In this document: positions 25,734 through 55,410 of the stretch, piece by piece
Layout: every line of letters starts with the position of its first letter
How positions within the stretch are numbered: the stretch's first letter is position 1
IMG/VR virus record: IMGVR_UViG_3300042465_006773
Length of the DNA stretch: 64,000 nt
Reading direction: 5' to 3' (one strand)
Source: a virus
Made by a program: the position numbers and the translations under genes
Notes under the pieces: generated by a model
Seen by the model: the letters and a program-made list of their open reading frames with translations, nothing else
The model's database searches: none
What the model was told of the DNA's origin: nothing

Positions 25734-25775
25734 AATATTAATAATATTAAAGATATTTATTAAGGTAAATCATCT

Positions 25776-30220: not shown

Positions 30221-30244
30221 AATTAAAATACGAAATATTTATGT

Positions 30245-30345
30245 TTAGAGTCAAATGGTTTGGTCACCATGAGATAATAAACTAATAAAACGAAAGGAGG
30301 GGTTCAATATCTCGGCAAAGGGGTCAATTTGACCCCTTTGTTCGT
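30245..30345 (+). ncRNA. Candidate small RNA A (extended Shine-Dalgarno in a loop)
   Basis: ATATTTAT at 30235-30242; hairpin ATGGT-TTGGTC-ACCAT; GAGATA/TATCTC stem enclosing GAAAGGAGGGGTTC; terminal hairpin CAAAGGGGTC-AATTT-GACCCCTTTG; no ORF >14 codons seen. Confidence 0.55.
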
Positions 30346-30370
30346 TTATGAGATATTGTGTACTTAAAAT

Positions 30371-30400
30371 AAAAAAACCCACCTTGTGAGTGGGTTTCTT
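30371..30400 (-). terminator. Intrinsic terminator downstream of tmRNA
   Basis: On minus: AAACCCAC-TCACAAG-GTGGGTTTTTTT. Confidence 0.8.
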
Positions 30401-30433
30401 TGTACTTATCGGAAAGTACAAAAAGTTAGCCAG

Positions 30434-30851
30434 TGGAGATGGGCGGAATTGAACCGCCGTCCACCCCGAGAAATCATAAATGGACTACATGCTTATTCAA
30501 TTAGTTCACAACTGACAAATAAATGGTTCCTATTTTGACATTGTTACCAATAACTGTGTCGAATTCACTTTTACCACTTTCGTGGATTTACAGGTAGTAC
30601 TCTGAACGAGACCCTTGACACTTTAGGTTGTATCACACCTTAAAGACTTCTGTTTCTAGGTTATTTGTCTCCCGACCCATTGATAGATTCGCCTAGGCTA
30701 CTGCTACCTTGGAAGAAGCGAGGATACCCGCAATTTCCATGTTGTTATAAACGTTGCCGCTTAATTTGTACCATCATTGATTATGGTCATAGATGATGTT
30801 TGACCGCATGCCCATTTAACATTTACACGTGTGTCGATTCCTTTCATCCCC
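30434..30851 (-). ncRNA. ssrA: tmRNA
   Basis: 5' GGGGATGAAAGGAATCGAC pairs with 3' CATCTCCA (G3-U70 Ala determinant); T-arm GGCGGTTCAATTCCGCC; tag ORF 30758-30693 = GNVYNNMEIAGILASSKVAVA*; CCA not encoded. Confidence 0.95.
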
Positions 30852-30855
30852 AAAA

Positions 30856-30866
30856 TTTCAAAGAAC
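30856..30866 (-). promoter_or_regulatory. boxA-like antitermination element in the tmRNA leader
   Basis: GTTCTTTGAAA 4 nt upstream of the mature 5' end; identical copy at 31825-31835. Confidence 0.6.
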
Positions 30867-30926
30867 AAAAAATTGTTATTTGTGATAAATATACGAAAAG
30901 TTTTCAATATTTCAAAAAAAATAGCA

Positions 30927-30954
30927 AAAAAAAAGGTTAGAATTTTCTAACCTT
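30927..30954 (-). terminator. Intrinsic terminator downstream of the giant ncRNA
   Basis: On minus: AAGGTTAGAAAATTCTAACCTTTTTTTT. Confidence 0.75.
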
Positions 30955-30966
30955 AATTAATTGTTG

Positions 30967-31814
30967 AGGGCCTTTCGACTCTTTGCTCCACCACTTGATT
31001 TTAAATCAAGAAAAAAAAAACACTGAGATTACATGTTTTATTAGTTGACTTTAAAAGGATTATTGTTTCCCTTTATATCCACAACCTTTTGAGTTGTACC
31101 AACCAGTGACGGCCAATTAGATTAACCAATCCTTGAGTCATCGGATACTCTCTCAATACTAATCACTCCTCGAGAATGCCTTCCCAATTAACCCTTGCGG
31201 GGTTAGAGGACTTTCTTAAAAATCGTATCGGGCTTGGGACCCTCTACGGCAATGAACGTTTCATTACTAAGTAGTCACCTGTTTCCGACGACTGATGAGC
31301 ACTTTTCCTTTTTATTAGATTTTGTTAATCAAAATAACAAGTTTTTTGGTTTGCGGATTATGAAGGTAGTGGCTCATCGACCAGCCATGTCATCTTTTGA
31401 ACAACACGATACTAAACTACCCTCTGAAATCTCCCGATTTCCATATTTTTGGACTCCTTCAAGAAAAGAACCTTGGTAGGTTCAAATCAAGGACAATAAC
31501 AGCACCACCTGTACAAAGTCATACCTTTCGGTTTTAAGATTCCCATCATATTGAATCACGCGATTACATAGTTGGATGACTATGTTTCTCACATAAATCC
31601 TACGAGTTATTCTTATTGGTGTTCCCACCTCAAATGAAGGACCCGCATCCCCCATTCGTTTTACCACTTTCACTACAGTGTCACCCTCGTTACTCAAGGT
31701 TAAACGATATCTCGTTTGTCTACTCGAGCTCTCTTTCGAAAGCCGCAACTCATCTAACCGAGTGAGTCACTTTATACCACTTTCGTGGTTTATTTAAGGA
31801 CCATAGACGGCCCT
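30967..31814 (-). ncRNA. ~850-nt giant structured ncRNA (GOLLD/ROOL-class candidate)
   Basis: No credible ORF, higher GC than flanks, ends pair (AGGGCC/GGCCCT), many GNRA-capped hairpins on minus (ACCAC-GAAA-GTGGT, ACC-GAAA-GGT, CCC-GCAA-GGG, GTC-GAAA-GGC), own promoter, boxA and terminator; lies between tmRNA and tRNAs. Confidence 0.8.
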
Positions 31815-31824
31815 ATTTTTAAAT

Positions 31825-31835
31825 TTTCAAAGAAC
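31825..31835 (-). promoter_or_regulatory. boxA-like element in the giant ncRNA leader
   Basis: GTTCTTTGAAA. Confidence 0.6.
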
Positions 31836-31883
31836 GATTGATTTTTCAAATCATGGTCTAAACCATAAGTATCAAATCTTTTA

Positions 31884-31891
31884 CAAAGATA
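31884..31891 (-). promoter_or_regulatory. Bacteroidota housekeeping promoter -7 element
   Basis: TATCTTTG matches TAnnTTTG; similar TATATTTG at 33072-33079(-), 41107-41114(-), 43063-43070(-), 45255-45262(-), 59778-59785(+). Confidence 0.7.
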
Positions 31892-31945
31892 CGAAAGAAA
31901 TCAATACAAGTCAAGCATTTTTAAAATTTTTTTTTATTTTTTTTT

Positions 31946-32407
31946 TTAAAGTCTCACTAAATGATTGGCTCCGTAGGTAGTCATAGCCCCATTGTGTTTG
32001 TATCTAACCTTATATCCCATACCTTGAACCAAACCAACAGCCTGTCTTAATACCTTGTTTGACCTAAACTTTGGGTCTGGGTTTAAATCGATATCAATCC
32101 ACGTTACTTTAGGTAAATCGTTATTTCTTAAAAACTCAGCAACTTCTATGGCTTTCCAAACTTCATTAATTAATCTAACTGACATCTCTTTTTCAAATGG
32201 TGTGGTTTCTTTTGTGCACAAAATATGGGCACCTTTACCTTTCATGTATAAAGCGATAACAGTACCGTACACCGTTTTAAAATTACCAAATGATTGAGAA
32301 TCTGACCCAATTAATATTTCGGTGTCAGGTTTTTCTAATAAAAAATTTCTTATATATTCTATTATATTATCTATCGGTATTCCGTGTAGTGTTTTAAAAT
32401 TTTTCAT
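31946..32407 (-). CDS. RNase H-like YkuK (DUF458) family protein
   Basis: ILIGSDSQ, TVIALY..GKGA, RLINEVWKAIEVA, IDIDLN. Confidence 0.8.
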   Translation of the reverse strand: MKNFKTLHGIPIDNIIEYIRNFLLEKPDTEILIGSDSQSFGNFKTVYGTVIALYMKGKGAHILCTKETTPFEKEMSVRLINEVWKAIEVAEFLRNNDLPKVTWIDIDLNPDPKFRSNKVLRQAVGLVQGMGYKVRYKHNGAMTTYGANHLVRL

Positions 32408-32427
32408 AACTTATAATATAAATATAG

Positions 32428-32499
32428 TAGGCCCACCTAGACTCGAACTAGGAATAACAGATTAGAAATCTGTGGTTATATCCCTTTAACTATGGGCCC
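32428..32499 (-). tRNA. tRNA-Arg(TCT)
   Basis: GGGCCCA/TGGGCCT acceptor, ACAGA-TT TCT AA-TCTGT anticodon arm, GTTCGAG T-loop; no CCA. Confidence 0.95.
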
Positions 32500-32506
32500 A
32501 ACTTTG

Positions 32507-32591
32507 TACCACCGACCGGACTCGAACCGGTACGGGAATTACTCCCAACAGAGTTTAAGTCTGTATCGGCTACCAATTACGACACGATGGC
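32507..32591 (-). tRNA. tRNA-Leu(TAA)
   Basis: GCCATCG/CGGTGGT acceptor, ACAGA-CT TAA AC-TCTGT, long variable arm GGGAGTAATTCCC; no CCA. Confidence 0.95.
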
Positions 32592-32635
32592 ATTTTTTTA
32601 TATAAAGATACACAAAAAACTAATGATTTCAAATA

Positions 32636-32878
32636 TTAAATATAGTCTTCACACCATATCGGTGTTTTTTCTCCTACATATGAACCAGAAACATTAAATT
32701 CAAAGTATTCAACGGCATCCATTTCACTCATACCTTGTTTTGTCAGTACATCAATACACTTACTAACAGAATAGATTAATCTCATTGTTTTTGTTTCGAT
32801 ACCTATTATTGCATCGTCGAAACCGTCGGCCATTAAAATATCCTCATCAGGATAGATGTCTAAAATTTTTTGTATCAT
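32636..32878 (-). CDS. Hypothetical phage protein inside the tRNA cluster
   Basis: ADGFDDAIIG...EYFEFNV.GSYVGE.TP, a pattern familiar from phage proteins. Confidence 0.7.
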   Translation of the reverse strand: MIQKILDIYPDEDILMADGFDDAIIGIETKTMRLIYSVSKCIDVLTKQGMSEMDAVEYFEFNVSGSYVGEKTPIWCEDYI

Positions 32879-32897
32879 TTTTTAAAAATATTTTTAG

Positions 32898-32971
32898 TAC
32901 TCCCGATGGGACTCGAACCCACAAGCTTCCCCGTGAAAGGGGGATGTCCTAACCAGTTAGACGACAGGAGC
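32898..32971 (-). tRNA. tRNA-Glu(TTC)
   Basis: GCTCCTG/CGGGAGT acceptor, TCCCC-CT TTC AC-GGGGA; no CCA. Confidence 0.95.
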
Positions 32972-32989
32972 ATTGTTTCATAATTAATG

Positions 32990-33062
32990 TGACCCTGGGC
33001 AGGTTCGAACTGCCGACCCATACATTAAAAGTGTATTGCTCTACCAACTGAGCTACAGAGTC
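32990..33062 (-). tRNA. tRNA-Lys(TTT)
   Basis: GACTCTG/CAGGGTC acceptor, TAGCTCAGTTGGTAGAGC D-arm, ATACA-CT TTT AA-TGTAT; no CCA. Confidence 0.95.
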
Positions 33063-33204
33063 ATTAGGTGACAAATATACATAATAAAAACTAAAAAACA
33101 AAAAAATGTCATATATAATTTTTTAAATATATATGAAAAATAAAATTGCCGGGATATTTATTGTTAACCAAACATGATAAATAAACCAAACATAAATTAT
33201 AACT

Positions 33205-33459
33205 ATGACTTTCAAAAATTGGATTGTAGACTTATTTAAAGACGAGAGAGGTTCTACTTCTATAAAACCCGTAATCGCATTTTTAGGTTCAACTTTTCTA
33301 TGTGGTACTATGTTAGCTAATTCATTTTCTCATGGTGATATTAAACCATCTGAGGATTTGGTAAACGCAGTAATGATTATAACCGCGATAGGAATGGGTG
33401 CCGATACTTTGGATAAGTTTTCACATAAAAGGAAATTTGAAGACAATGTATCTGAATAA
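33205..33459 (+). CDS. Small two-TM membrane protein (holin-like)
   Basis: Two hydrophobic helices, charged C-tail; ATATTTAT at 33154-33161. Confidence 0.55.
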   Translation: MTFKNWIVDLFKDERGSTSIKPVIAFLGSTFLCGTMLANSFSHGDIKPSEDLVNAVMIITAIGMGADTLDKFSHKRKFEDNVSE

Positions 33460-33461
33460 AA

Positions 33462-33956
33462 ATGAAAAAACCATATATACTTACCGTTTTATTTTTTCTT
33501 TTATTGGGGTTAAATAATCTTAACGCCCAAAGTCTTGTTGTTGATACGGTAATCAACAACATAAAAATAGGTCCATTTACTGAAAATAAAAATTTGGCAT
33601 TTGGAGTTAAAAATATTGCTGAAGAAATTATAAACGAACAGGATAAATTTTATTTGGTTGGAGACAAATCAACGTCAGAATATAAAATAAAAATTGAACT
33701 AATATTTTTTGATATTATTAAGGTTAACTCCGGTATTAGTGTTTTCCATCAAGATAAAACAACGACGGTAATTAGAATGAAAGGGATTCTATACAAAGGA
33801 GATAAAAAAATAAAACAAGAATTTTCGGAAGGGAAATCGACAGAAATATCAACTTCAACAATCATTATTGATGAAGGTGGTAAATTTAATCAACAATCTG
33901 CCAGTTCAGCAATAAAAAAAACAACTCAAACACTATTAAATAATTTATTACTATGA
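33462..33956 (+). CDS. Exported protein, possible CsgG/FlgT-middle-like fold
   Basis: Signal peptide ending LNAQ; LAFGVKNIAEE and FNQQSASSAIKK resemble GLGVANITLE and FNQSTIGISTKK of 36793-37539. Confidence 0.5.
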   Translation: MKKPYILTVLFFLLLGLNNLNAQSLVVDTVINNIKIGPFTENKNLAFGVKNIAEEIINEQDKFYLVGDKSTSEYKIKIELIFFDIIKVNSGISVFHQDKTTTVIRMKGILYKGDKKIKQEFSEGKSTEISTSTIIIDEGGKFNQQSASSAIKKTTQTLLNNLLL

Positions 33957-35860
33957 AAAAACTAATTTTAACATTTGTGTTAATGATGATAACCTATGTA
34001 GGTTATTCACAGAGCGTAGGTAATTTTCAACAATTATCTACAATAAGAAGAAACGATACGTTAGATGTAATATTTCAATACATCCCCGACCCAACAAAAG
34101 ATGTAAGGTCGTTTCAAATCGATTTCCAATTTAAGAAGGATTTATTTACACACGTTTCAACAACTGTGGATAATAGTGTTAATACCATGACACCGGCAAT
34201 ATCATATAACGAATATGATAACTTTAAGTATGGTTCATATAGTCCAGCAACGGGTTTATATGGGTATGTTAATGACACAAATTGGACCGTCGCTAGAAAC
34301 TTTTTAGTATTATCAAGTGGTTCTCAAATTTCAGGAGCAATATACATCATTCACAATAAATTTTTAATTAACAATGTTCAATCCAATTTCGTGGAAGATA
34401 GTGTACACGTGAACTGGGTTAGATTGTTTAAAAAAGACGGTACAAGTATTGGTGATAACGTAGCGAATTTGACTTACAAGAGTATGAAGTTAGATTTGGG
34501 TGGTAACTTGGTTATAAGTGGTAATGTTGAACTTCCACCGACTATGAAATTAGATGGTAGAAGACCAATGGTTATATGTACTAAATTAAACACTGGTGAG
34601 TTTGTGTCTTCTTCTTTATGTGATACTTCAGGTAACTATAGTTTAAATAATGTTGATAGAAACACTAGATATAAATTACTTTTAAGATTCCCATCTGATA
34701 GTATGGAAACTTTCAGAGATTATGCGGTAACGATATCAGATGCCGTAAAAACATATGATGAATTTACAAGAACAGACGTTAATCAAACGTATTCAAGATT
34801 TTATTTGAAAAATGGTTTATCTTATTTGATTGCTGATTTAAATGGAAATGGTAATTTAGATGGTGGTGACCCGTATTTGATATACGCAAATGTTAGTGGT
34901 TTAAGAAAAATAGATACTACGAACATGATTAGAGTGTTTAAAGCATCTGATTATGATAACTTAGTTTTAGGTCAAAACCAATGGTCTATTTGGCCTAATT
35001 TTTTAAACACAACAAACTTTATCACGGATAGTGTTGGTAACGAAAATTTGGTTGTGAATATTAAATACTTTATACAAGGTGATGTTGATAGAACATTCTC
35101 TTCAAGAGTGTGGGATAGTAATGGTAATTTAGTTGCCAGAGCAATTTATAAAGGTAAATTAGATATTAACATACCAAACACATATTCTGTTGGTAATCCA
35201 TCGTTATATGTTCCATTTAACATAAACACAAATGGGGATAATAACTATGGACTACAATTTGAAATGAAGTATGACAGAACAAAAGTTAAATTTGAAGAAA
35301 TCGTGTCCAATTTTAATGGTGGCCCATGGTTACAATATGTGACACACGATGAACTATCAGGTACTGTTAGGTTTGGCGGAATGAATAATCAACAAAGAGA
35401 CGGTTTAATTGGTCAATCGACACCTTTTAAACTTAAATTTTCACCAATTGGTGGTGAGGATATCGTAACAAATATTCAAATTAGAGAATTGATGGATGCC
35501 TCGGACGAAAATGGTGACCACTTAAATATTGAGTTACAAAACCAAATCGCAGTTTTAAGTTATAGGTCAATTCCACAGACCCATCAAGTTGTTGAAGAAA
35601 TAACAGCATCGATAAGACCAAACCCAACAACAGGTTGGTTTGAATTAGAAGTTAAATTTCCAAATCAAAATATGTTTATGGACGCATCTATTTATGATAT
35701 CAGAGGTAAGTTGATTCAAAACGTAGGACAAGTTATAACAAATCCAATGGAAACGGTCGCATATAAACAAATTGATATGACATACGCTTCTAATGGAAAT
35801 TATTTTCTAATTCTGAATAATTATAATAAACAATTAACTAAACAATTTATAAAAGTATAA
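33953..35860 (+). CDS. T9SS (Por) type-A cargo protein with cohesin-like and dockerin-like modules
   Basis: Signal peptide; ADLNGNGNLDGGD Ca-loop; VPFNINT...GLQFEMKYD cohesin-like; C-terminal IRPNP...IYDIRGKLI...GNYFL...TKQFIKV sorting domain. Confidence 0.8.
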   Translation: MKKLILTFVLMMITYVGYSQSVGNFQQLSTIRRNDTLDVIFQYIPDPTKDVRSFQIDFQFKKDLFTHVSTTVDNSVNTMTPAISYNEYDNFKYGSYSPATGLYGYVNDTNWTVARNFLVLSSGSQISGAIYIIHNKFLINNVQSNFVEDSVHVNWVRLFKKDGTSIGDNVANLTYKSMKLDLGGNLVISGNVELPPTMKLDGRRPMVICTKLNTGEFVSSSLCDTSGNYSLNNVDRNTRYKLLLRFPSDSMETFRDYAVTISDAVKTYDEFTRTDVNQTYSRFYLKNGLSYLIADLNGNGNLDGGDPYLIYANVSGLRKIDTTNMIRVFKASDYDNLVLGQNQWSIWPNFLNTTNFITDSVGNENLVVNIKYFIQGDVDRTFSSRVWDSNGNLVARAIYKGKLDINIPNTYSVGNPSLYVPFNINTNGDNNYGLQFEMKYDRTKVKFEEIVSNFNGGPWLQYVTHDELSGTVRFGGMNNQQRDGLIGQSTPFKLKFSPIGGEDIVTNIQIRELMDASDENGDHLNIELQNQIAVLSYRSIPQTHQVVEEITASIRPNPTTGWFELEVKFPNQNMFMDASIYDIRGKLIQNVGQVITNPMETVAYKQIDMTYASNGNYFLILNNYNKQLTKQFIKV

Positions 35861-35864
35861 AATC

Positions 35865-36212
35865 ATGAGTGAAGAAACAGAAAACGACGGCTCTTGGGGT
35901 GGTTTGAAAAAAACCATCGTAGGTACATTAGCAACCATTGTCACAGGTGGTGGTGTGTGGGTATCCACAACTCTATTTGGTGGTGGAGGGGACGATAAAG
36001 AAGAAACTAAAACAGAACAGGTTGCACCCGCACCAGTTATTAATCTTAATTTAGAAAATAATAACACTCAACAACAAAATAACTCGGGTGGTGGAACAAC
36101 TATCATAAAAGAAAGAGTTATTGAAAAGCAACCAGAAAATAACAATAAACCCGCACCTGCTCCGAAGAAAAAAGAAGGTGATGAATTTAAAGAAACCCCA
36201 CCAGCATGGTAA
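35865..36212 (+). CDS. Single-TM membrane protein with N/Q/P-rich tail
   Basis: TM TIVGTLATIVTGGGVWV; NNNTQQQNNSGGG. Confidence 0.65.
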   Translation: MSEETENDGSWGGLKKTIVGTLATIVTGGGVWVSTTLFGGGGDDKEETKTEQVAPAPVINLNLENNNTQQQNNSGGGTTIIKERVIEKQPENNNKPAPAPKKKEGDEFKETPPAW

Positions 36213-36778
36213 ATGATAATTCTCAAAACACTGGATTTAGAGAACTTCTAAATTCAATGATGAAAAGAAGGTGGTTTATAACCGCCATAGTTCTTGGTGG
36301 GTTCATGTTAATTATGGGTGGAATATTTTTGGCCATATTTGAACAAAGTGCCATAAGTGGAGAATGGAAAGAACTTCTTCTTTTACTTCTTGGTGCTTTC
36401 ATTGGTTCCTACGGTAAAATCATTGACTATTGGTTCAGTGATACTGATAAGGATAAAATGTTAGTTCAAAAAATGGATGAAGAGGATGGTACTTCGTTAT
36501 CAAATACATCGGATATACCAGATTCACCAAAACCATCAACACCATCTAAACCCATTCTTGATTTAGAAAGTACTGAAACGAAATCAAATAATGAACAAAA
36601 AGTTGGTGTAGAAATCGATGAGGATGGTGATGGTATTATGGATGGTTTAGATTTCGATAATGACGGTATCATTGATGAATATTTCACACACAGACAATGT
36701 GAACACGTTTGGGGTGATTCAGACAATGACGGTGATTTAGAGTGTTTAAAATGTGGTAAAATAAAAGACGAAGAATGA
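36206..36778 (+). CDS. Two-TM membrane protein with Ca-binding DxDGDG repeats and C-terminal Cys motif
   Basis: DEDGDGIMD, DFDNDGIID, DSDNDGD; C-x-H...C-x2-C. Confidence 0.7.
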   Translation: MVNDNSQNTGFRELLNSMMKRRWFITAIVLGGFMLIMGGIFLAIFEQSAISGEWKELLLLLLGAFIGSYGKIIDYWFSDTDKDKMLVQKMDEEDGTSLSNTSDIPDSPKPSTPSKPILDLESTETKSNNEQKVGVEIDEDGDGIMDGLDFDNDGIIDEYFTHRQCEHVWGDSDNDGDLECLKCGKIKDEE

Positions 36779-36792
36779 ATAACATAATCAAA

Positions 36793-37539
36793 ATGAAAAA
36801 ATATTTACTACCAATTTTAGTATTTCTATTTTGGGTTATCATAATGACGATATTAATGTTTGATGTTGCATCTGCACAAGTTATTGGTAAAACACAAACA
36901 GAGCAATACAAAGCGTCATTTGAAACAAGTGTAAATATTGATTCATTAATGGATTATGAGGGACCACAAATTCCTATTCAAATTTTGAAAATAGGTATAA
37001 ATGATGAAGTTTATGAACAATACCCAGAATTAAAAGAAAAAAAAGTTGGTTTGGGTGTTGCAAATATCACATTGGAGTACTTGGAAAATCTAAATAGATT
37101 TACTTTTACCGAAGATAAAACCGAAATAAAAAACAGAATGGTTAAACAATTCCAAGCGTCTCAAGCTGGAATAAGTGCAGATACTTTAGATGGTAGGGGT
37201 AAAATTCGTTTAGCACACTATTTTGTTAGTATTGAAGTTTATGATTTTTCAATAAGTGAAGATGAGACTGTTAACTTGTCTGATGGCGTAAAAAATACTG
37301 TGGTTACAAGATTAGGTTTACAGGTTAGATTTACCGATGCAGAAACAGGCCAAATAATCGCTGCAAGTGGTTTGGGTGAAGCTAAAACGGTAAGAGAATT
37401 AAGTTTAATAAACGACGATAATTTAAGTGATGTTAAATTTAACCAATCAACTATTGGTATAAGCACTAAAAAAGCATTAGACATTGCATGTTGTAGAATA
37501 CTATTGAGAATGATAAAAAAGGGTGTTTTCCCTAATTAA
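36793..37539 (+). CDS. CsgG/HfaB family (curli assembly/holdfast anchor-like) protein
   Basis: Signal peptide; GLGVANITLEYL..LNRFTFTE, VYDF, LQVRFTDAETGQII, GLGEA, STIGISTKKAL. Confidence 0.7.
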   Translation: MKKYLLPILVFLFWVIIMTILMFDVASAQVIGKTQTEQYKASFETSVNIDSLMDYEGPQIPIQILKIGINDEVYEQYPELKEKKVGLGVANITLEYLENLNRFTFTEDKTEIKNRMVKQFQASQAGISADTLDGRGKIRLAHYFVSIEVYDFSISEDETVNLSDGVKNTVVTRLGLQVRFTDAETGQIIAASGLGEAKTVRELSLINDDNLSDVKFNQSTIGISTKKALDIACCRILLRMIKKGVFPN

Positions 37540-37580
37540 CAAAGACAGATTCTAATATCTTCTTTTAAAGAAAATGAGTG

Positions 37581-39011
37581 ATGATATTAAAAAATATTAT
37601 AAAAGTATCTTTAATAATATTACTTATAATATTTTCTAAAATATCAAATGCACAAGTAACCACTTATACATTTATAGACCCTTGTACAAAAGAAGTTAAC
37701 ATTTTTAGTGTACCATTACAAGGAGGTAAAACAACAATAATTTTTTTAAATAAAATAGGTTATTTTGATAGTGACGATTTGTTAAATGGAACATTTTCAA
37801 ATTGGATAAATCAAGTTTATGGTGAATATAGACAAATAAGTCCGTGTTCACAACAACAATCTCAAGTAACTCAAAATCAAATAACCAGTCAAATAATCGG
37901 AGGAGTTGTACAATCGGTAGTCGGTTCAATAATGTCATCCAATCAATCTTCAAATGGGTCAACAGAAAATAACAATGAGGACTCTGAAGAAAACAATAAT
38001 ACTCAAAGAAATGGAAACAATAATACTACGGGAAATAATGAAAACAACTCTTCAAATCAAGGAGGAGGACAATCTCAACCAAATCAAACAAATGGTGGGT
38101 CATCTGGAGGAACAAATAACGGTCAAGGAAATGGAACTACAGGCAATGGTGGAGCGAATGGAGGTACAACTGGTTCAACACAAGGAAGAAATCCGTCGAC
38201 TAAACCGACTGTAAACAATTCAAACAATTCTGAATCAAATGGTGAAGAAGTTGCCGCAACTACCACAATAAATTTAGATAGTAGAACCGAGAAAGGTGAT
38301 AATTCATCAAATGATGGTGGTGGTTCAGGAAGAAGAGGTGGGTCAAGAAGTGGTGGTTCAAACAGTAATCCAATTATAGTTTCCTCAGATTTAACATCGG
38401 CACAAAATTTAGATGGTAGGTTCACAGGGATAATAAACATCAGTACCAGTAGGTCGTCGATGACTGGTTTATCAAATTATGGTGTTACAAGTATGATTTG
38501 GTTAAATTTAAACCAATTCGCCATTTCCGCCAAATATAGTAAAATACATTTTGATAAAAGTCAAAAGTTAAAATTCGTCCATAATCTAAATTTAACAGGT
38601 GTTTATACATATGGTAATTACCTGGTATTTTTAGGGTATAGTGGTATCTTAAATGCAGGTAAATTCGGAGTAACCGGTTTAAATTTGAGTGCTGCCGCCT
38701 CAATAATCACTAAAGAAAAAACAGGTTATTACTCACCTTCTGCAACTTTTTTCTACACAAAACCATTTCAGGTTAACAAAAGATTTATGATGTCACCTGA
38801 AATATATGTAATGTCAACACCGTTAGTTTATTCAACAAAAGATAGAATAACAATTACAGACAGGTACGTGAGTGGTTTTATAGGTACGGGAATGGATTAT
38901 CAAATATCAAAAAGATTTAAAATAAACTTGAATTATAAGGCAAATATGAGTACTAAACCGAATTTTCCTATTTTGTCTTTTTTTCTAATTGGTAGTAAAG
39001 TTAATTTATGA
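37581..39011 (+). CDS. Exported protein with N/Q/G/S-rich linker and C-terminal beta-barrel-like domain
   Basis: Signal peptide (SNAQ), low-complexity middle, alternating amphipathic strands (GTGMDYQISKRFKINLNYKA) to the C-terminus. Confidence 0.65.
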   Translation: MILKNIIKVSLIILLIIFSKISNAQVTTYTFIDPCTKEVNIFSVPLQGGKTTIIFLNKIGYFDSDDLLNGTFSNWINQVYGEYRQISPCSQQQSQVTQNQITSQIIGGVVQSVVGSIMSSNQSSNGSTENNNEDSEENNNTQRNGNNNTTGNNENNSSNQGGGQSQPNQTNGGSSGGTNNGQGNGTTGNGGANGGTTGSTQGRNPSTKPTVNNSNNSESNGEEVAATTTINLDSRTEKGDNSSNDGGGSGRRGGSRSGGSNSNPIIVSSDLTSAQNLDGRFTGIINISTSRSSMTGLSNYGVTSMIWLNLNQFAISAKYSKIHFDKSQKLKFVHNLNLTGVYTYGNYLVFLGYSGILNAGKFGVTGLNLSAAASIITKEKTGYYSPSATFFYTKPFQVNKRFMMSPEIYVMSTPLVYSTKDRITITDRYVSGFIGTGMDYQISKRFKINLNYKANMSTKPNFPILSFFLIGSKVNL

Positions 39012-40756
39012 GATTCTTTGGGTTCTTGTATGTATTATTTTTATTACCAATATTTGTTTTTTCTCAAAACATAAGCGCACCATCATCCACCAATTTTTCT
39101 CAAAATTTATCTAATCAAAATGCGAGTGGATTTTCAATATCAAATTTTAACACAAGCGCAACTTTACTTATTACAATTGGTTTAGTAAATCCACCGGCCG
39201 GTACTACTCTTTCGTTAATAACAACAACAGGATTATCTTTAAGTACAGGTTATTCTTCTTGGTCAAATTTTACAAGAATTAGTTTTACGGGTATTCAATC
39301 AAATATTAACAACGCTTTAAGTTCGTTAAAATTAAACACAGGTTCTTTACCGGGTAATGTTTACATCGCGGTAACCGCAACCGTAAATCCAACGGGATAT
39401 TATTATTTACCAACAAACGGACACTTTTATAGACCGATGTCTTGGCCAGCGGGTAATTCAGGAACAAGTAATTCGATATATGAAAATATAAAAACATTAT
39501 CAACACAACAAACATTTAAAGGACAAACCGGGTATTTGTTAACGATTACATCTCAAGATGAACAAAATTTTGTTCAGTCAAACGTACCGGGTAATAATAT
39601 TTTATTTTCATTAACAGACGTTGGTCAAGAAGGTGTTTGGAGAATAGATGCCGGACCTGAAAATGGTACAATAATAAAAACATCAAATTCGGGCGGAAAC
39701 GTTGCGGGTAGATATAACAATTGGTGTGGTGGTGAACCAAACAATTGGGGTAGTGGTGAAAACTATGCAGTTACTAAATGGGGTGGTGGTAATTGTTGGA
39801 ACGATTTTGGTCCACCTGCATCATCTTTTCCTGGTTCAATAAGTGGTTATGTTGTTGAATTTGGAACGTGGTCAGACCCCGCAAATCAAAATTTCACAGA
39901 TTTTTTTACAGGATTTGTTACACATCAAATTACTTGTACACCATCACAAGAACCACCAAAACCCATTGCAGTAAACGGTAGTAGAACGGGTAGTGGTACT
40001 GTGACAATATCAGCAACAGTTGGTCCCGGTCAAACTGTTGATTGGTATAATAATTTAACAGGGGGTAACCCAATATTAGTTGGTAATACCACTTTTACGA
40101 CACCAGTTATTTCTCAAACAACAAAATATTATGCTCAGTCAAGAAATACGTCAACGGGTTGTGTTAGTTCAACAAGAACAGAAGTCACGGCAACAGTTTC
40201 AATTTCAGAAACAATAAGTGGGACAATAACTATTCCTAATAATATAACAAATAGACCACAATTAAAATTTTATCTTGTTGAGAATAATTTAGAAACATTA
40301 ATACAGACCATAAACGTTAATTCAAATGGTTCATATACTTTGAACCCAACAAAACACAATTCAACATACAAAATAGTTCCAACGTTTTTTGATTCATTAA
40401 CAAATAACGATTTTAATTTATTATTTAACGAATCTAAAAATGAAAATACACCAAATCAATTACCCATTGGTTTGGTTTTAAATAATGGAAAAAAAATGAT
40501 TTCGGGTGATATTAATAATGATGGAAAAATAACAATTGTCGATGCCTATCTATTGGCATCAAGAATATCGGGAATGATTTATTTTAACGAAACGGTATGG
40601 TATTACGAAAATGATTATAATTTAATAGGTATTGGTAATTTTAATTCAATACCTAATTACCGACAATTTATTGTTAATTTTGGGACATCCAATATTATTT
40701 TAAATTTAAAATATATTGTTAAGGGAGACTGCGATTTGTCAATATCCTCTTATTGA
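39008..40756 (+). CDS. Exported protein: C-type lectin + Ig-like + dockerin-like domains
   Basis: GYLLTITSQDEQNF, NWCGGEPNN, WND (lectin); VDWY..LTGG...FTTP...YYA (Ig-like); GDINNDGKITIVDA (dockerin-like). Confidence 0.8.
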   Translation: MRFFGFLYVLFLLPIFVFSQNISAPSSTNFSQNLSNQNASGFSISNFNTSATLLITIGLVNPPAGTTLSLITTTGLSLSTGYSSWSNFTRISFTGIQSNINNALSSLKLNTGSLPGNVYIAVTATVNPTGYYYLPTNGHFYRPMSWPAGNSGTSNSIYENIKTLSTQQTFKGQTGYLLTITSQDEQNFVQSNVPGNNILFSLTDVGQEGVWRIDAGPENGTIIKTSNSGGNVAGRYNNWCGGEPNNWGSGENYAVTKWGGGNCWNDFGPPASSFPGSISGYVVEFGTWSDPANQNFTDFFTGFVTHQITCTPSQEPPKPIAVNGSRTGSGTVTISATVGPGQTVDWYNNLTGGNPILVGNTTFTTPVISQTTKYYAQSRNTSTGCVSSTRTEVTATVSISETISGTITIPNNITNRPQLKFYLVENNLETLIQTINVNSNGSYTLNPTKHNSTYKIVPTFFDSLTNNDFNLLFNESKNENTPNQLPIGLVLNNGKKMISGDINNDGKITIVDAYLLASRISGMIYFNETVWYYENDYNLIGIGNFNSIPNYRQFIVNFGTSNIILNLKYIVKGDCDLSISSY

Positions 40757-41088
40757 TGATTTGTATTAAGTTTATTATATAAAGTTAATATTTGTTCACA
40801 GTATTCATATTCTTCTTTATCTTCAAAGAAGGGTAAAATGTCTCTAATTAAAACAAAACACTCTTTTTTGTTGAATTTTAATTCAGTTTCCCATTGAAGT
40901 CCGTTAATTTTTGCGGATAATAATAATATGACGTTTTCTTTATCTTTTCTATTTATACTTTTAAAAGATAATACAACATTTTTATATATTTCTTCTTTGT
41001 TTTTTAAATAAAATTCAGGGAAGTCTTCATACGATTCGTCGATTTTTAGTTTCTTAATTATCGTGTCCTTTGGTTTGTCTTGATACAT
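40750..41088 (-). CDS. Hypothetical protein with UVR-like C-terminal motif
   Basis: FFEDKEEYEYCEQI; promoter TATATTTG at 41107-41114 favours ATG 41088. Confidence 0.6.
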   Translation of the reverse strand: MYQDKPKDTIIKKLKIDESYEDFPEFYLKNKEEIYKNVVLSFKSINRKDKENVILLLSAKINGLQWETELKFNKKECFVLIRDILPFFEDKEEYEYCEQILTLYNKLNTNHQ

Positions 41089-41152
41089 TGCACTATCTGT
41101 TTTAATCAAATATACGAATCATAAGACTCATATCAAAATTTTTTTATTAACA

Positions 41153-41611
41153 TTATTGGGTATGGTCTATTTTAACCCTAACACAAGATTGTTCTTGTCT
41201 TTCTCTCATTAAAAAATTATTGATATACCCCATAATGTTAGATGCCCCAACTGGGTTCGCTGAATGTGTATAAACCTGTGGAAAGTTAATCGGGGTATTC
41301 CTTTTCTCCATAGATGACATCTTTTCTCTATTTTGAGAAAAATTATCGTAGTAGTGATTTATTAACCATTTAGCACAATCATATCCTGTTTTTTCTTTAA
41401 TATTCTCATAATTTAATTGTCCGTTTGGGTAAACATTTGAATAGAATTCCTCCATCGCACTATCACCTAAATCATGGTCAAGAGATATTATGTCAATATT
41501 CTCTAATCCAATTTTTGTTACTGTTTTTACAAAATCATCGTAATTTCTTACAACAATCCAATCTGTATTAATTGGTGTACGGATATCGTCTAAATAAATT
41601 TTAACTTTCAT
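41153..41611 (-). CDS. Cyclic-phosphate-processing receiver-like domain protein
   Basis: IYLDDIRTP, ISLDHDLGD, TGYDCAKWL, HSANPVG. Confidence 0.75.
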   Translation of the reverse strand: MKVKIYLDDIRTPINTDWIVVRNYDDFVKTVTKIGLENIDIISLDHDLGDSAMEEFYSNVYPNGQLNYENIKEKTGYDCAKWLINHYYDNFSQNREKMSSMEKRNTPINFPQVYTHSANPVGASNIMGYINNFLMRERQEQSCVRVKIDHTQ

Positions 41612-42668
41612 CTTTTTTAAATGGTTTAGAATATGTTGGTCGTATTAATTTCCAAATTTTGCTTGAGTAGTCTTTACCATCTAACATACTAAATAATAAA
41701 TATGGGTACTTATATTTTTTAGTATATTCAGCAAATACCGCTCTATTTTCACCGTTTGAACTTCTACTAATTACTTTGAAAATACACTTGTATTCTTTTT
41801 CTATTTTTTCGTATTGATTTAACAATTCGTTTTTAGTGTCTCTAACCCAATTATAAAATTCATCGGGTACTTTATCAAGAATTTCATCAAAAGAAATATT
41901 ATCTCTTAAAGATTCCCAAATATCGATATTTGAAACATTCGTTAAAATTCTATGTAAACGAACATACTCTTCAAACTTTATTTTCATTCTAAAATTTGAA
42001 GGATAAAATCGAATAACAAACCCCTCTCTATTTGGGGTATTTAGTTTTTTATATGTATCAAAAGTTTCTTTCCCAAAAGTTATCATGGTACTTTCCACAA
42101 TATCTTCTTCTTTAATTTCTGATGAATTAAAAATTGCTCGGGCAGTATACCAATTCAGTTCACCTTCAGGTGACGTTACCGATAAAAAAGTAACCTTATC
42201 GTGTTCGTAACTGACTACAATTCTATTCTCCGAATAGATTATTTCTAATAAATAAGTAAATCCCTTAACAAATTTTGATAAATCATATTTTGATTTAAGA
42301 ATATTAAAACCACGAATAGATTGTTCTGAGGTAAACGAACCTCTTGTCGCCATTATCCACTCATCATCATAATTAAATAAAATACCAAGAGACCCGTCCA
42401 TTTTTTCTTGAACATAAGCATATTCACTATTCCAAGGAATTAAATCTTTATGAATAACCTCTTCGTAATTAAAAAATTTACCAAACGGTTTGGCAACAAT
42501 ATCACCTTTTGAATTAGTAATGAGACCACGACACTGCATGGTGATATCATCCCAAAGAGATTCATACTGTACTTTGGGGGTATAGTTCCAAATGCACAAA
42601 TCTTTGGTAGGATGGATTTGTTTCATTAATAAACCATCTTCGTGGTATTTTTTAAGTGTTTCTATCAT
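41601..42668 (-). CDS. RNA ligase, T4 Rnl1 (RnlA) family
   Basis: CRGLI, KFFN, EKMDGSL (motif I), ATRGSF, EGFVI, MKIK. Confidence 0.9.
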   Translation of the reverse strand: MIETLKKYHEDGLLMKQIHPTKDLCIWNYTPKVQYESLWDDITMQCRGLITNSKGDIVAKPFGKFFNYEEVIHKDLIPWNSEYAYVQEKMDGSLGILFNYDDEWIMATRGSFTSEQSIRGFNILKSKYDLSKFVKGFTYLLEIIYSENRIVVSYEHDKVTFLSVTSPEGELNWYTARAIFNSSEIKEEDIVESTMITFGKETFDTYKKLNTPNREGFVIRFYPSNFRMKIKFEEYVRLHRILTNVSNIDIWESLRDNISFDEILDKVPDEFYNWVRDTKNELLNQYEKIEKEYKCIFKVISRSSNGENRAVFAEYTKKYKYPYLLFSMLDGKDYSSKIWKLIRPTYSKPFKKDES

Positions 42669-43048
42669 ATAGAAAATTCAAAACGTTTCTTCATTATTTC
42701 TAATCTATCTTCTGGTACTCCGTGTAAATTCAAACCTCCATGTCGATTTTCAACAATAATGGAATGTACCCTGTAACCAAATTGATTAGCCATTTCATAG
42801 TAAGAATCCATTTCCCATTTTTGAGTGAAAGTATTAGATACAATGATAAGTGGTTTTTCCAACAACATCCAATCCGAAACTTGATTCCTACACCATTCGT
42901 GTGCTATTTTTAATTTTGACCCGTCAAAGTGATATTCACCGTCTTTCATAAAGTACATATCCGCTTCGATATGTTCACCATCTAAAAGTTTCGCTAACGT
43001 TGATTTACCTGACCCAGGTAATCCTCTTAAAAGTAACAGTTCTTTCAT
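42665..43048 (-). CDS. Stand-alone polynucleotide kinase-like P-loop kinase (AAA_33)
   Basis: LRGLPGSGKSTLA, EADMYF, AHEWC, VSNT, HGVP; start at ATG 43048 downstream of promoter 43063-43070. Confidence 0.85.
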   Translation of the reverse strand: MKELLLLRGLPGSGKSTLAKLLDGEHIEADMYFMKDGEYHFDGSKLKIAHEWCRNQVSDWMLLEKPLIIVSNTFTQKWEMDSYYEMANQFGYRVHSIIVENRHGGLNLHGVPEDRLEIMKKRFEFSI

Positions 43049-43086
43049 TTTATTTGTTTTTACAAATATACGAAAAAAAAACCAAT

Positions 43087-43115
43087 AAAAAACCCCCAAC
43101 GGAGAGTTGGGGGTC
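43087..43115 (-). terminator. Intrinsic terminator (end of sRNA B / clpC transcript)
   Basis: On minus: ACCCCCAAC-TCTCC-GTTGGGGGTTTTTT. Confidence 0.85.
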
Positions 43116-43180
43116 ATGGTCATTTTGTGGTTTCAACACCACTAACTAAAACGAGAGGAATCGGCAAAGATTTCCTATTT
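43087..43180 (-). ncRNA. Candidate small RNA B, complementary to sRNA A
   Basis: ATATTTAT at 43186-43193(-); hairpins AGGAAATC-TTTGCC-GATTCCT and GTGGT-GTTGAA-ACCAC; terminator; block complementarity to 30255-30320. Confidence 0.5.
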
Positions 43181-43220
43181 GATATATAAATATATATACT
43201 TTTACAAAAAGTCAAGGTAT

Positions 43221-45239: not shown

Positions 45240-45390
45240 ATTTTGTTTTTTATACAAATATAAGGGATTTCATGATAAAAAACAAATATATGACAAAATA
45301 ACCTAAAAAAGAAAAAAAGTATGACAATATGTCAGTTTGTGTAATTTGGAATCTTTTTTGTATAAACATATTCAAATAAAAAAATATAAT

Positions 45391-45792: not shown

Positions 45793-45830
45793 ATTTGATA
45801 TTTATTATGTATATTACTAAACAAAAAAAA

Positions 45831-47265: not shown

Positions 47266-48294
47266 ATGGCAGATTTAAAACCATTGGGTAGTGAAAAACT
47301 CAAAGCGGATGAAAAATTAAAAAGAATCCTTGAGTTAACATACTACGGTGAAAACAAAAATAAAACCATCACCGAATCTAAATCTTCAACAATGAAGACA
47401 GAATATATATCTGAATCCGTTAATGGGTTTAGATATGGTATTGTTAAAGAAAAAGATGGTTTCTATGTAAAAAAAGGTTTAAATGAAAGTTCATTAGATT
47501 ACATTGGTGGACTTTTTATGAAAAATAAAAATAGATTTAATTCATATGCTGAGGCACTTAAAAGATTACAACTATTAAGTGGCGGTGAATTAAATGAAGC
47601 AACAAAATATGTTTTAAAACAAAAACCTTCAACACCTGAAGGTGATATGGGAGCATTACCACCAGCACCTGAAGGTGATATGGGTACGGATTTACCACCG
47701 GCACCTGAAGGTGATATGGGAGCATTACCACCAGCACCTGAAGGTGATATGGGTACGGATTTACCACCGGCACCTGAAGGTGATACGGCAATGGGAAATG
47801 AGGGTTCACCTAAACCGTCGGATTATATGACGGAAGTGCAGAAATTTGCTGGTAAGTTGGGACAAGAATTAAGAGACCAAAAAGAAAAAATGGAAAGTGA
47901 CGATATTAAATATGTTTTAAACATGATAATATCCGCAGTTGATTTAGACAAACTCGATGATGAAGATATTGAAGAAATCGGTGGTAAATTTGATAGAGAA
48001 ATTGAGGATGACGCAACAATGGGAGATAATATGGATGACGAAACCTTACCAGCAGACGATGAAACCGTTCCTGAAGAACCTGCAGGTGATGAGGAATTAG
48101 GTGAAATGATGGGTATGGATAAACTTGAGTCTTTTATTAATCAACCAATTGAAACTGGTGAGATAGATTTGTCAAAATATGCCGATTTAGGAAAAGGGAC
48201 AAACGAGGAAGATTTAAAAGAGATTGATTTAGATGAAATTAAAAGTGAGATAAATAAAAGTATTGCTGAAACTTTAGGTAAATATTTCAAATAA
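47266..48294 (+). CDS. Acidic putative head-associated protein with Pro-rich repeats
   Basis: ITES/LNES/LNEA motifs; PEGDMG repeats; lies upstream of the head module. Confidence 0.6.
   Translation: MADLKPLGSEKLKADEKLKRILELTYYGENKNKTITESKSSTMKTEYISESVNGFRYGIVKEKDGFYVKKGLNESSLDYIGGLFMKNKNRFNSYAEALKRLQLLSGGELNEATKYVLKQKPSTPEGDMGALPPAPEGDMGTDLPPAPEGDMGALPPAPEGDMGTDLPPAPEGDTAMGNEGSPKPSDYMTEVQKFAGKLGQELRDQKEKMESDDIKYVLNMIISAVDLDKLDDEDIEEIGGKFDREIEDDATMGDNMDDETLPADDETVPEEPAGDEELGEMMGMDKLESFINQPIETGEIDLSKYADLGKGTNEEDLKEIDLDEIKSEINKSIAETLGKYFK
47634..47785 (+). repeat. In-frame 69-bp tandem repeat (33+36-bp subunits), two copies plus a partial
   Basis: Encodes PEGDMGALPPA-PEGDMGTDLPPA twice, with identical DNA. 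Confidence 0.9.
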
Positions 48295-54480: not shown

Positions 54481-55218
54481 ATGACAAATTTTGGAGAATT
54501 TAAATTAAAAATGTTAACTAAGTTAACTGATTTATATACATCAAAAAATAAAGTGGAATTAAAAAATACCATAAAATCAATCACATCAAATAAAACATTA
54601 TCCGAAATGTATACTTTCTATGAAAACATAGAAAATTTAAACATCACATCAAAAGATAAGGCCAAATTATATGTGGAATCAATCGAACCTATTTTGATTG
54701 AAAAAATGAAAACTATAAAGAAAGATTTGAAAAATTTCACTAAGAATTTAAAAGAAGTTGAGTTTGAAAAAAATTCTTTGTATGAAAATTTAGATATTCT
54801 TTCGGAAGAAAACACTATACACAATATATCCAAAAAAATAGATGCTAGAGAAAATTTAATTGAACATTTATTGAAGGAAAAAAAACGAGATGAAAAACCA
54901 AGTGAAATTCAAATAGAAAATCATTCACTGTTGAATGCAGTATTGGTTAATAATTTTAATATAAAATATTCGGATTTTTTAAGTGAGGAACAAAAAGAAA
55001 CATTTAATAAAATTGTTTCAATGCCCAATGATGAATTAATAAAAGAAACAAAAAACCTTAAAAAGGAATTGACTAACAAAATCGACTCTTTGATTAAAGA
55101 ATCGAGTGAGGATACGTTAAAAGATAAATTAAAAAATGTGATGTCAGAAATAAATAAATCTGACACCACAAAATTTGATTATTATAAACTTATTGAATTG
55201 AAGAATGGGTTACTATGA
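54481..55218 (+). CDS. Hypothetical coiled-coil protein in the head module
   Basis: Directly follows the portal gene; K/E/L-rich helical composition. Confidence 0.65.
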   Translation: MTNFGEFKLKMLTKLTDLYTSKNKVELKNTIKSITSNKTLSEMYTFYENIENLNITSKDKAKLYVESIEPILIEKMKTIKKDLKNFTKNLKEVEFEKNSLYENLDILSEENTIHNISKKIDARENLIEHLLKEKKRDEKPSEIQIENHSLLNAVLVNNFNIKYSDFLSEEQKETFNKIVSMPNDELIKETKNLKKELTNKIDSLIKESSEDTLKDKLKNVMSEINKSDTTKFDYYKLIELKNGLL

Positions 55219-55410
55219 CCTATCTTCTTTGCTTTTAATTTTTTGTTTATAAATTGCTTTAAGTAATTTATCTCTTTTAGCCACGGAAGGTTTCACAAAC
55301 TCCTCTCTGTCTCTTAATTGTTCATTTTGTCTTGTTTTTTGAACCCTGTATTTATATTTTTTTAATGCGGATTCAATTCCTTTTTCTTTACTTACATTGA
55401 TTTTTATCAT
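55213..55410 (-). CDS. rpsU: Phage-encoded 30S ribosomal protein bS21
   Basis: IESALKKYKYRVQKT...QLRDREEFVKPSVAKR...KAIYKQ, Bacteroidota-type. Confidence 0.9.
   Translation of the reverse strand: MIKINVSKEKGIESALKKYKYRVQKTRQNEQLRDREEFVKPSVAKRDKLLKAIYKQKIKSKEDRS

Follow-up and report, generated by a model that had tools for sequence, protein, structure and literature searches.

The locus examined here raises the question of whether two small non-coding units, A and B, form a trans-encoded pair of a small RNA and its anti-small RNA, as a preliminary description had proposed. The units lie 12.9 kb apart in a 64,000-nucleotide stretch of viral DNA (IMG/VR record IMGVR_UViG_3300042465_006773), which was analysed as a whole and is called the window below. 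Both are conserved, structured RNA genes, as seen from covariance models and alignments. They are read in opposite senses, and the complementarity between them is conserved and unique to the A/B pair. The features of the two units and of their surroundings are listed in Table 1.

Table 1. Features of small RNAs A and B and of associated elements in the window
Feature	Position	Strand	Remarks
Small RNA A	30246..30348	+	~103 nt; covariance model R1, 110.5 bits
A upstream ATATTTAT promoter-like box	30235..30242	+	(G/A)ATATTTAT invariant, 4-6 nt 5' of the RNA in all A relatives
A hairpin P1, invariant loop UUUGGUCR	30251..30275	+	Pairing kept though outer stem varies by lineage
A block 1, complementary to B	30282..30298	+	Partner is B 43159-43142; predicted unpaired up to AACGAA
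A extended SD-like box GAAAGGAGG(G/U)	30292..30303	+	No conserved ORF behind
A block 2 (UCGGCAAAG)	30312..30320	+	Complementary to loop of B hairpin 1
A 3' hairpin, terminator-like, then UUCGUUUA	30314..30342	+	12 pairs; 99.7% of cells paired
Small RNA B	43087..43182	-	~96 nt; covariance model R2, 105 bits
B upstream ATATTTAT promoter-like box	43186..43193	-	ATATATATTTATAT kept in all B relatives
B hairpin 1, loop UUUGCC	43156..43176	-	Contains block 2' at 43161-43169
B block 1' (UCCUCUCGUUUUAGUUAG)	43142..43159	-	Antisense to A block 1
B hairpin 2 (GUGGU-GUUGAA-ACCAC)	43127..43142	-	Counterpart of A's P1; 5/5 pairs compensatory
B intrinsic terminator with U-tail	43091..43115	-	G.U pair valid on - strand only
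Separate TATATTTG (-7 type) promoter of kinase / Rnl1 ligase / cREC operon	43063..43070	-	Kept 3' of B terminator in 16/16 aligned relatives
Phage bS21 gene	55213..55410	-	Pfam PF01165, 33.7 bits; found in 5/5 relatives searched

A scan of the whole window with Rfam 15 gave matches at the gathering score for GOLLD, tmRNA, and four tRNAs only, and assigned A and B to no family. Permissive scans of the two units returned only sub-threshold, leader-like or terminator-like matches (best, 27.7 versus 41 bits). The preliminary description had not recognised a described family either; A and B are two new RNA families. It had also placed a ATATTTAT box upstream of both units, a terminal hairpin at the end of A, and a U-tailed terminator on the opposite strand at the end of B, and all of these were found. 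Separate loci are supported by the promoter boxes, the 3' hairpins, the strand-specific covariation, and the distance between the units. We infer that each is transcribed as a discrete RNA.

The alignment of A comprises 25 distinct homologues with 98.5% of the cells paired. In the 3' hairpin, three pairs show changes on both sides, and approximately 77 G.U cells across the 25 sequences make the fold valid on the + strand only; the same holds for the U.G pairs in the outer stem of P1. The alifold energy is -25.7, versus -12.4 for the reverse complement, and the GC content of A is 39%, versus 31% genome-wide. Additional matches to the R1 model at 25-30 bits proved to be ordinary terminators. The ATATTTAT box is also present 14-50 nt 5' of the ORFs at 25776 and 33205. 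The alignment of B is larger, with 73 distinct homologues, 99.3% of the cells paired, and compensatory changes at 15 of the 21 pairs. One pair in the helix of hairpin 1 occurs as UA (58 sequences), AU (8), GC (3), and CG (1), and the terminator contains G.U in 58 of the 73 sequences, so that B folds on the - strand only. The two units are therefore not paralogues of the same sense. In IMG/VR, about 30 contigs carry A and at least 117 carry B. The apparent absence of A from one type of relative (L013, including a genome that is 92% complete) is not a loss, because those contigs end at the tRNA/tmRNA island where A is expected.

B is always located directly upstream of the kinase-ligase genes and in the same sense, and its terminator is strong. 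This arrangement would suit a role in cis on the RNA-repair operon (kinase, Rnl1 ligase, and cREC), as a leader or attenuator, with A tuning terminator read-through in trans on the nascent leader. We regard such a main role for B as rather improbable, since every aligned relative has a conserved TATATTTG promoter between the B terminator and the start of the kinase, which indicates that B is an independent unit and not the sole leader of the operon, and since the blocks targeted by A lie 40-70 nt 5' of the terminator without overlapping it. An ORF running through B (42665-43123) was judged an artefact. The kinase has its start at 43048, with its own promoter in front. A sigma-70 promoter scan was uninformative because this type of host uses TAnnTTTG promoters. 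That the B loop AUCUUUGCC resembles the -7 box found in rpsU promoters of the host was given no weight, as it is probably the generic TAnnTTTG consensus.

On the + strand, the two loci share three colinear blocks, all at the places given in the preliminary description: TGGTTT..CACCA (30256-30269 and 43128-43141), CTAA(C)TAAAACGA(A/G)AGGA (30282-30298 and 43142-43159), and TCGGCAAAG (30312-30320 and 43161-43169). The first of these, the hairpin block, is self-paired within each RNA. The A/B core is thus a direct repeat at the DNA level, and its opposite reading makes the RNAs complementary in two blocks, with 13-22 bp around AAAACGAAAGGA and 9-11 bp around UCGGCAAAG. The intermolecular pairing is likely to comprise approximately 26-30 bp, divided between two blocks with an asymmetric loop between them, which shortens the 35-40 nt estimated previously. 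For the suggested loop-seeded interaction, the B hairpin AGGAAAUC-UUUGCC-GAUUCCU is present, but seeding is doubtful because GGCAAA lies within the 3' stem of A itself.

Direct repeats on either side of the tmRNA/GOLLD/tRNA island and accessory operons might also be read as a DNA element, either an operator recognised by a DNA-binding protein of the phage or att-like repeats flanking an island of 5-27 kb. This reading is highly improbable. Both copies are situated inside RNAs with covarying helices and G.U pairs; moreover, the repeats are imperfect in an identical manner in every lineage, with a 12-15 nt insert in A only and differing hairpin loops, and are therefore not as left by recent recombination, which makes an att function unlikely. 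A CRISPR repeat or tracrRNA-like explanation was set aside on reasoning alone, as no repeat array was noticed in the vicinity of A or B.

The complementarity is specific to the two loci. In the window, TAAAACGARAGGA occurs only at A and B (two matches, 0.35 expected), and in relatives of 134-288 kb the core 11-mer is likewise confined to them. When the 5' half of B was scanned against 12,786 windows of 70 nt on both strands, with its own antisense strand set apart, the best partner was A (-36.9 kcal/mol, z -5.4; next best, -33.1). The second-best site, 58933-58987, is within a gene and rich in G.U pairs, and was dismissed as a chance match. We relied on such segment scans in preference to whole-length duplex or cofold energies, which surpass those of shuffled sequences by only about 2 sd (z about -2) and discriminate poorly between cognate (-53.4 kcal/mol) and non-cognate (-50.8 kcal/mol) pairs. 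The bipartite complementarity is retained in 15/15 same-contig pairs, that is, in each phage lineage with A and B on one contig, with energies of -27 to -42 kcal/mol and some covariation, as the preliminary description would lead one to expect. In each of the contigs checked, A and B lie on opposite strands, and across 11 genomes they are 4.9-27.5 kb apart; a cis-antisense pair would share one locus on opposite strands, and A and B do not. On these sequence comparisons, A and B are a conserved, mutually specific antisense pair.

The covariation between the two RNAs appears modest. In block 2, 9-11 bp are kept in nine distinct pair types, with six wobble changes, one compensatory change, and two breaking changes. 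At the variable position of TCG[G/A]CAAAG, A and B combine as G-C, G.U, or A-U, and A.C never occurs, which gives a single G-C to G.U to A-U series, and the substitutions in the A copy of block 2 are equally well explained by A's own hairpin. The second indication is the variable linker, whose states (CUAAnAAAA, GACUAnAAAA, CUGG, and GAAAAAAA) are common to cognate A and B; the permutation test of this match gave p = 0.017 by sequence, and the energy-based test on the linker gave p = 0.06. Next to the shared blocks, features specific to A or to B have remained different, and this speaks against gene conversion.

It may therefore be asked whether the two RNAs ever meet. B could be an antisense-oriented partial copy of A, with the core kept in A for its SD box and closing helix and in B for the CGUUUU/AAAAUG helix and hairpin 1. 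The pairing sites are indeed partly buried in intramolecular helices that involve both cores: GGCAAAG and AACGAA of A lie in its own helices, and in the MFE fold CGUUUU of block 1' partly pairs with AAAAUG inside B. Tested by energy, cognate pairs are not significantly favoured, and block 1 contains uncompensated A.C mismatches, with CGAGAGG of B opposite CGAAAGG of A in the middle of the duplex in the window and several lineages, and two such mismatches in one lineage (L186). Distant phages (L124 and L127) possess an A-like 3' domain, for which no B or other partner was detected in the contigs searched, which are fragments. However, such independence would mean that 26-30 nt in one RNA and their complement in the other had each been kept for a different reason, in lineages whose ligases are only ~50% identical. 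Furthermore, the loop of B stays complementary to A without structural constraint, both of its substitutions being C>U opposite G and hence wobble-compatible, and the linker varies in common between cognate pairs. We consider the independence of A and B unlikely.

We favour the explanation that the dedicated function of B is to antagonise A as an antisense RNA, which we consider reasonably probable. A and B would be separate, convergently transcribed small-RNA genes of freshwater jumbo phages that encode bS21, each driven by a ATATTTAT-type promoter box and ended by its own hairpin. Their cores probably derive from a single ancestral sequence kept as a direct DNA repeat, and since their promoters point towards one another, the transcripts would be mutually antisense in two blocks. 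We infer that they pair in vivo, B binding the single-stranded linker of A and the 5' base of its 3' hairpin, so that one RNA titrates or inactivates the other as in a small RNA and anti-small RNA couple, possibly with cleavage by RNase III. The effector is more likely to be A, whose linker carries a 10-nt extended SD box of the rpsU type with no ORF. The predicted pairing covers 7-8 nt of this box; B would therefore switch A off.

The SD box connects A to ribosomal protein bS21. An SD oligonucleotide, AGAAAGGAGGU, has been used for the Bacteroidia 16S tail (PMC7797042). Most A relatives match 10 of 11 nt of it and the window's own A (GAAAGGAGGG) matches 9 nt. Judged against this oligonucleotide, GAAAGGAGGU of A reaches the 9-13 nt of complementarity to the 16S 3' tail that mark an rpsU leader; the variants of the box are wobble-compatible (GAAAGGGGGU). 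The single-stranded core of A is identical at 16 of 18 positions to rpsU leaders of Chitinophagaceae, which are probably the hosts of these phages. A start codon and a bS21 ORF at SD spacing are absent from A. No conserved ORF follows the SD box in the 25 A sequences, and the reading frames 3' of it range from 6 to 26 codons, depending on the lineage. As far as can be judged from these features, A is a mimic of the rpsU leader and not a member of that family, because it has AUC at the start position and no conserved frame, and because bS21 is encoded elsewhere in the phage, by a gene without an SD.

Because B is antisense to this core, it might instead target the host, at the extended SD of the rpsU leader, with A as a sponge mimicking that target. 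Fifteen B variants, however, paired with 39 candidate host rpsU leaders no better than with control windows from the same loci (means of -9 to -15 versus -12 to -14 kcal/mol), whereas each reached -21 to -36 kcal/mol with its own A. We give this possibility very little credence. Matches to the A core ~330 nt 3' of the host rpsU start fall inside a recombinase-like ORF and were attributed to chance.

For the antagonism of A by B, a function can be suggested tentatively: A may mimic the host rpsU leader without an ORF of its own and act as a decoy for the 16S 3' tail, with B as its timed antisense off-switch. The extended SD is read by Bacteroidia ribosomes solely when bS21 is missing (PMC9976891, PMC13000457), and bS21-encoding phages, the group to which those with A and B belong, have been proposed to hijack translation with their own bS21 (PMC9723584). 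The extended SD of A could capture the freed 16S 3' tail of bS21-free 30S subunits, so that the autoregulation of host rpsU would be starved and the phage bS21 would take over the ribosomes. Alternatively, A may help to displace host bS21, a role played in F. johnsoniae by the 13-bp SD-ASD helix. If this is true, A would be the first RNA decoy targeting a specialised-ribosome circuit. With A and B, the substitution of phage bS21 into host ribosomes, until now a vague idea, becomes testable with defined RNAs. The pair would also offer a natural two-RNA switch for a lineage without such genetic tools.

To our knowledge, small regulatory RNAs of jumbo phages, especially those infecting Bacteroidota, are almost unexplored, and base-pairing small RNAs have been little studied in the host lineage. 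The closest known systems are anti-sRNAs and sponge RNAs. Prophage-encoded anti-sRNAs are present in EHEC. SroC is a sponge of GcvB (PMC4474525), and CJnc180 is an antagonist of CJnc190 (PMC8687705). Like these, A and B are encoded by a mobile element, and one of the two has another small RNA as its main predicted partner, through an extended complementary stretch. In contrast, both appear to be dedicated genes with a promoter each, located 5-27 kb from one another in a lytic-type jumbo phage. They probably derive from a single ancestral sequence that is read in opposite senses, and neither has a known mRNA target. The c4 antisense RNA of phages P1 and P7 resembles the proposed B in acting in trans through two short elements that pair with two others overlapping a ribosome-binding site; its target in P1 is an ORF-containing mRNA from the same operon, whereas A has no ORF, and Rfam C4 gave no match at the gathering score. 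Type I toxin-antitoxin systems with a trans-encoded antitoxin RNA (ZorO/OrzO and TisB/IstR) likewise mask a strong ribosome-binding site by a separate antisense RNA, but A lacks a conserved toxin ORF, and the match to OrzO-P is far below the threshold (21.7 versus 60 bits). The rpsU (bS21) leader of Bacteroidia (PMC9976891, PMC13000457) shares with A the GAAAGGAGGU sequence after an A-rich tract, in a phage genome whose genes are otherwise without SD sequences; unlike that leader, A stands alone, flanked by 5' and 3' hairpins, with neither a start codon nor a conserved ORF.

Relatives of the window were gathered first via the ligase of the RNA-repair operon (78 IMG/VR loci) and afterwards via motif scans. 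Unit B was found in at least 117 viral contigs, and the order ATPase, B, kinase, and ligase is kept without exception. Its 73 distinct sequences align into three hairpins with 99.3% of the cells paired, and both-sided changes occur at 15 of the 21 base pairs. The terminator contains a G·U pair in 58 sequences, which exists on the minus strand only. ATATATATTTATAT is conserved upstream of B, and a separate TATATTTG promoter is located between the B terminator and the kinase; therefore, B is predicted to be a unit of its own. The fixed gene order could also be read with B as a leader of the RNA-repair operon, modulated by A, but beside this separate promoter we consider such a role improbable. 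The operon, which includes a cyclic-phosphate-processing receiver domain protein (cREC; PF20274, 78.5 bits), is probably a counter-measure against anticodon nucleases.

Unit A occurs in approximately 30 contigs (25 distinct sequences), convergent every time with a tmRNA/GOLLD/tRNA/group I intron island; the tmRNA, GOLLD, and tRNA genes are likewise present in the relatives, and the intron adjoins A in some of them. The stem of the 5′ hairpin differs across lineages yet remains paired below an invariant loop, UUUGGUCR, and the 3′ hairpin (12 bp) is 99.7% paired. About 77 G·U cells in the latter become mismatches if read on the opposite strand, and RNAalifold gave −25.7 kcal/mol for A vs −12.4 kcal/mol for its reverse complement. 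(G/A)ATATTTAT is invariant upstream of A, and the same box precedes the ORFs at 25776 and 33205. Gene starts in the AT-rich window (30.8% GC) are of the Bacteroidota type, with TAnnTTTG boxes and A-rich leaders without SD; the GATATTTATT boxes may represent a distinct, phage-specific (late?) promoter class.

Features of the window discussed in the text
Feature	Position	Strand	Remarks
GATATTTATT boxes	25752–25761, 33153–33162, 45797–45806	+	like those of A and B; shortly before ORF starts
Unit A	30246–30348	+	between end of plus-strand operon (stop 30220) and convergent minus-strand RNA island
tmRNA	30431–30851	−	tag GNVYNNMEIAGILASSKVAVA; in RNA island facing A
GOLLD RNA	31020–31424	−	314 bits; in RNA island
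tRNAs Arg-tct, Leu-taa, Glu-ttc, Lys-ttt		−	in RNA island (30431–33062)
RNA-repair operon	41153–43048	−	AAA_33 kinase, T4-type Rnl1 ligase, cREC receiver protein
AAA_33 kinase	42665–43048	−	RNA-repair operon
Unit B	43182–43087	−	between ATPase gene and RNA-repair operon
ClpB/C-like ATPase gene	43221–45257		adjoins B
Phage bS21 gene	55213–55410	−	Pfam 33.7 bits

Neither unit matched an Rfam family, even with E up to 10. The covariance models built for A (R1) and B (R2) gave no cross-matches; therefore, they are two families. The features named for both units in the preliminary description are all present, and the strand-specific G·U pairs in both bear out its view that the RNAs are of opposite, not the same, sense. 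On these comparisons of sequences, both units are structured RNAs that have been conserved, and they are read in opposite senses.

More distant phages (L124:1501–1603 and L127:1501–1613; ligase approximately 53% identical) have only an A-like 3′ domain, consisting of AGAAAGGGGUG, AUCUCGGAAAG, and the hairpin; neither the 5′ hairpin nor the ATATTTAT box of A is present in these elements, and B was not detectable in these fragment contigs. Genomes with B and without A are only apparent, as those contigs stop at the tRNA/tmRNA island. Several independent assemblies of one lineage (G005–G008; loci L139–L142) all break in or beside this island, so that a repeat, strain variation, or the end of the genome may lie there. 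Elsewhere in the window, in-frame tandem repeats lie within plus-strand ORFs (36–39 nt at 56996–57365; 33–36 nt at 47623–47788), and their peptides are acidic D/E/M-rich and PPAPEGDMG-like.

Wherever one contig has both units, they are encoded on opposite strands, 4.9–27.5 kb apart. The complementarity first noticed in the window is conserved: in 15 of 15 same-contig lineages, A has two blocks able to pair with the 5′ half of B, with predicted energies of −27 to −42 kcal/mol. Block 1 (13–22 bp) is centered at AAAACGAAAGGA of A, and block 2 (9–11 bp) is on its UCGGCAAAG; the spacer between them is 12–15 nt in A vs 2–3 nt in B. Of 12,786 segments of the window that were scanned against the 5′ half of B, A ranks first as a partner, the antisense strand of B itself aside (z −5.4), and in relatives of 134–288 kb the 11-mer AAACGARAGGR is found only in A and B. 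A DNA-level element might leave such a shared core, but next to the strand-specific pairs of both RNAs it has very little probability.

Covariation between A and B, which the preliminary description had proposed as a check, is modest. At TCG[G/A]CAAAG in block 2, the A/B states are G-C (6), G·U (1), and A-U (2), never A·C; substitutions in this block mostly keep pairing, with a mismatch in two lineages. The structurally free loop of B has two changes, each C>U opposite G. In the variable distal linker, cognate A and B have lineage-specific states in common (CUAAnAAAA, GACUAnAAAA, CUGG, GAAAAAAA), and a permutation test with ten clade representatives gave p = 0.017 when scored by sequence and p = 0.06 when scored by energy. 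GGUC in the invariant loop of A also matches an invariant single-stranded GACC of B, a small match given little weight. Whole-RNA energies are scarcely better than those of shuffles, block 1 contains an A·C mismatch in several lineages, that of the window among them, and intramolecular helices engage parts of both pairing sites. Independent constraint keeping a sequence and its complement would accommodate the last two of these points, and we regard it as unlikely. Strand, conservation, specificity, and a modest degree of covariation all speak for an antisense pair, and functional pairing of A with B is more probable than not.

Within the linker of A is GAAAGGAGGU; it agrees at 10 of 11 nt with the SD oligo that was used for the tail of F. 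johnsoniae 16S rRNA (PMC7797042). In Bacteroidia, bS21, bS18, and bS6 sequester the 16S 3′ tail, and an extended SD occurs only in rpsU; it is read by ribosomes without bS21, and bound bS21 is incompatible with the 13-bp SD-ASD helix (PMC9976891, PMC13000457). The phage bS21 gene, a counterpart of which is encoded in all five relatives searched, is preceded by a box of the TATATTTT type and, unlike host rpsU, by an A-rich leader without SD. The nearest cellular bS21 genes are from Chitinophagaceae, many in lake MAGs, and thereby give a hint of the host. In contig size (286–334 kb), GC content, and lake origin, the phages studied here match those with bS21 described by Chen et al. (PMC9723584).

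An 18-nt stretch of A, AAAAACGAAAGGAGGTAT, is identical to Chitinophagaceae rpsU leaders at 16 of 18 positions and matches them at the right position in 18 of 80 loci. Host rpsU has AUG at the start position, whereas A has AUC; in the A relatives compared, the box is followed neither by a start codon nor by an ORF that is conserved. In the rpsU leaders (L318–L397), a small hairpin, AUACC-AAAGGA-GGUAU, holds the extended SD approximately 40 nt before the start, directly 3′ of a TATCTTTG −7 box, and would half-mask it. The predicted B pairing covers 7–8 nt of the SD-like box of A. A host target for B was also considered; its pairing with candidate host rpsU leaders was no better than with control segments. 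A host target is therefore highly doubtful, and A remains the specific predicted partner of B. Tentatively, A may be a decoy of the rpsU leader under the control of B.

RNA-RNA antagonist pairs are already known. New here would be a phage with two dedicated sRNA genes that share an ancestor, are read in opposite senses, and are linked to an extended SD lacking an ORF, in a host that is SD-blind.
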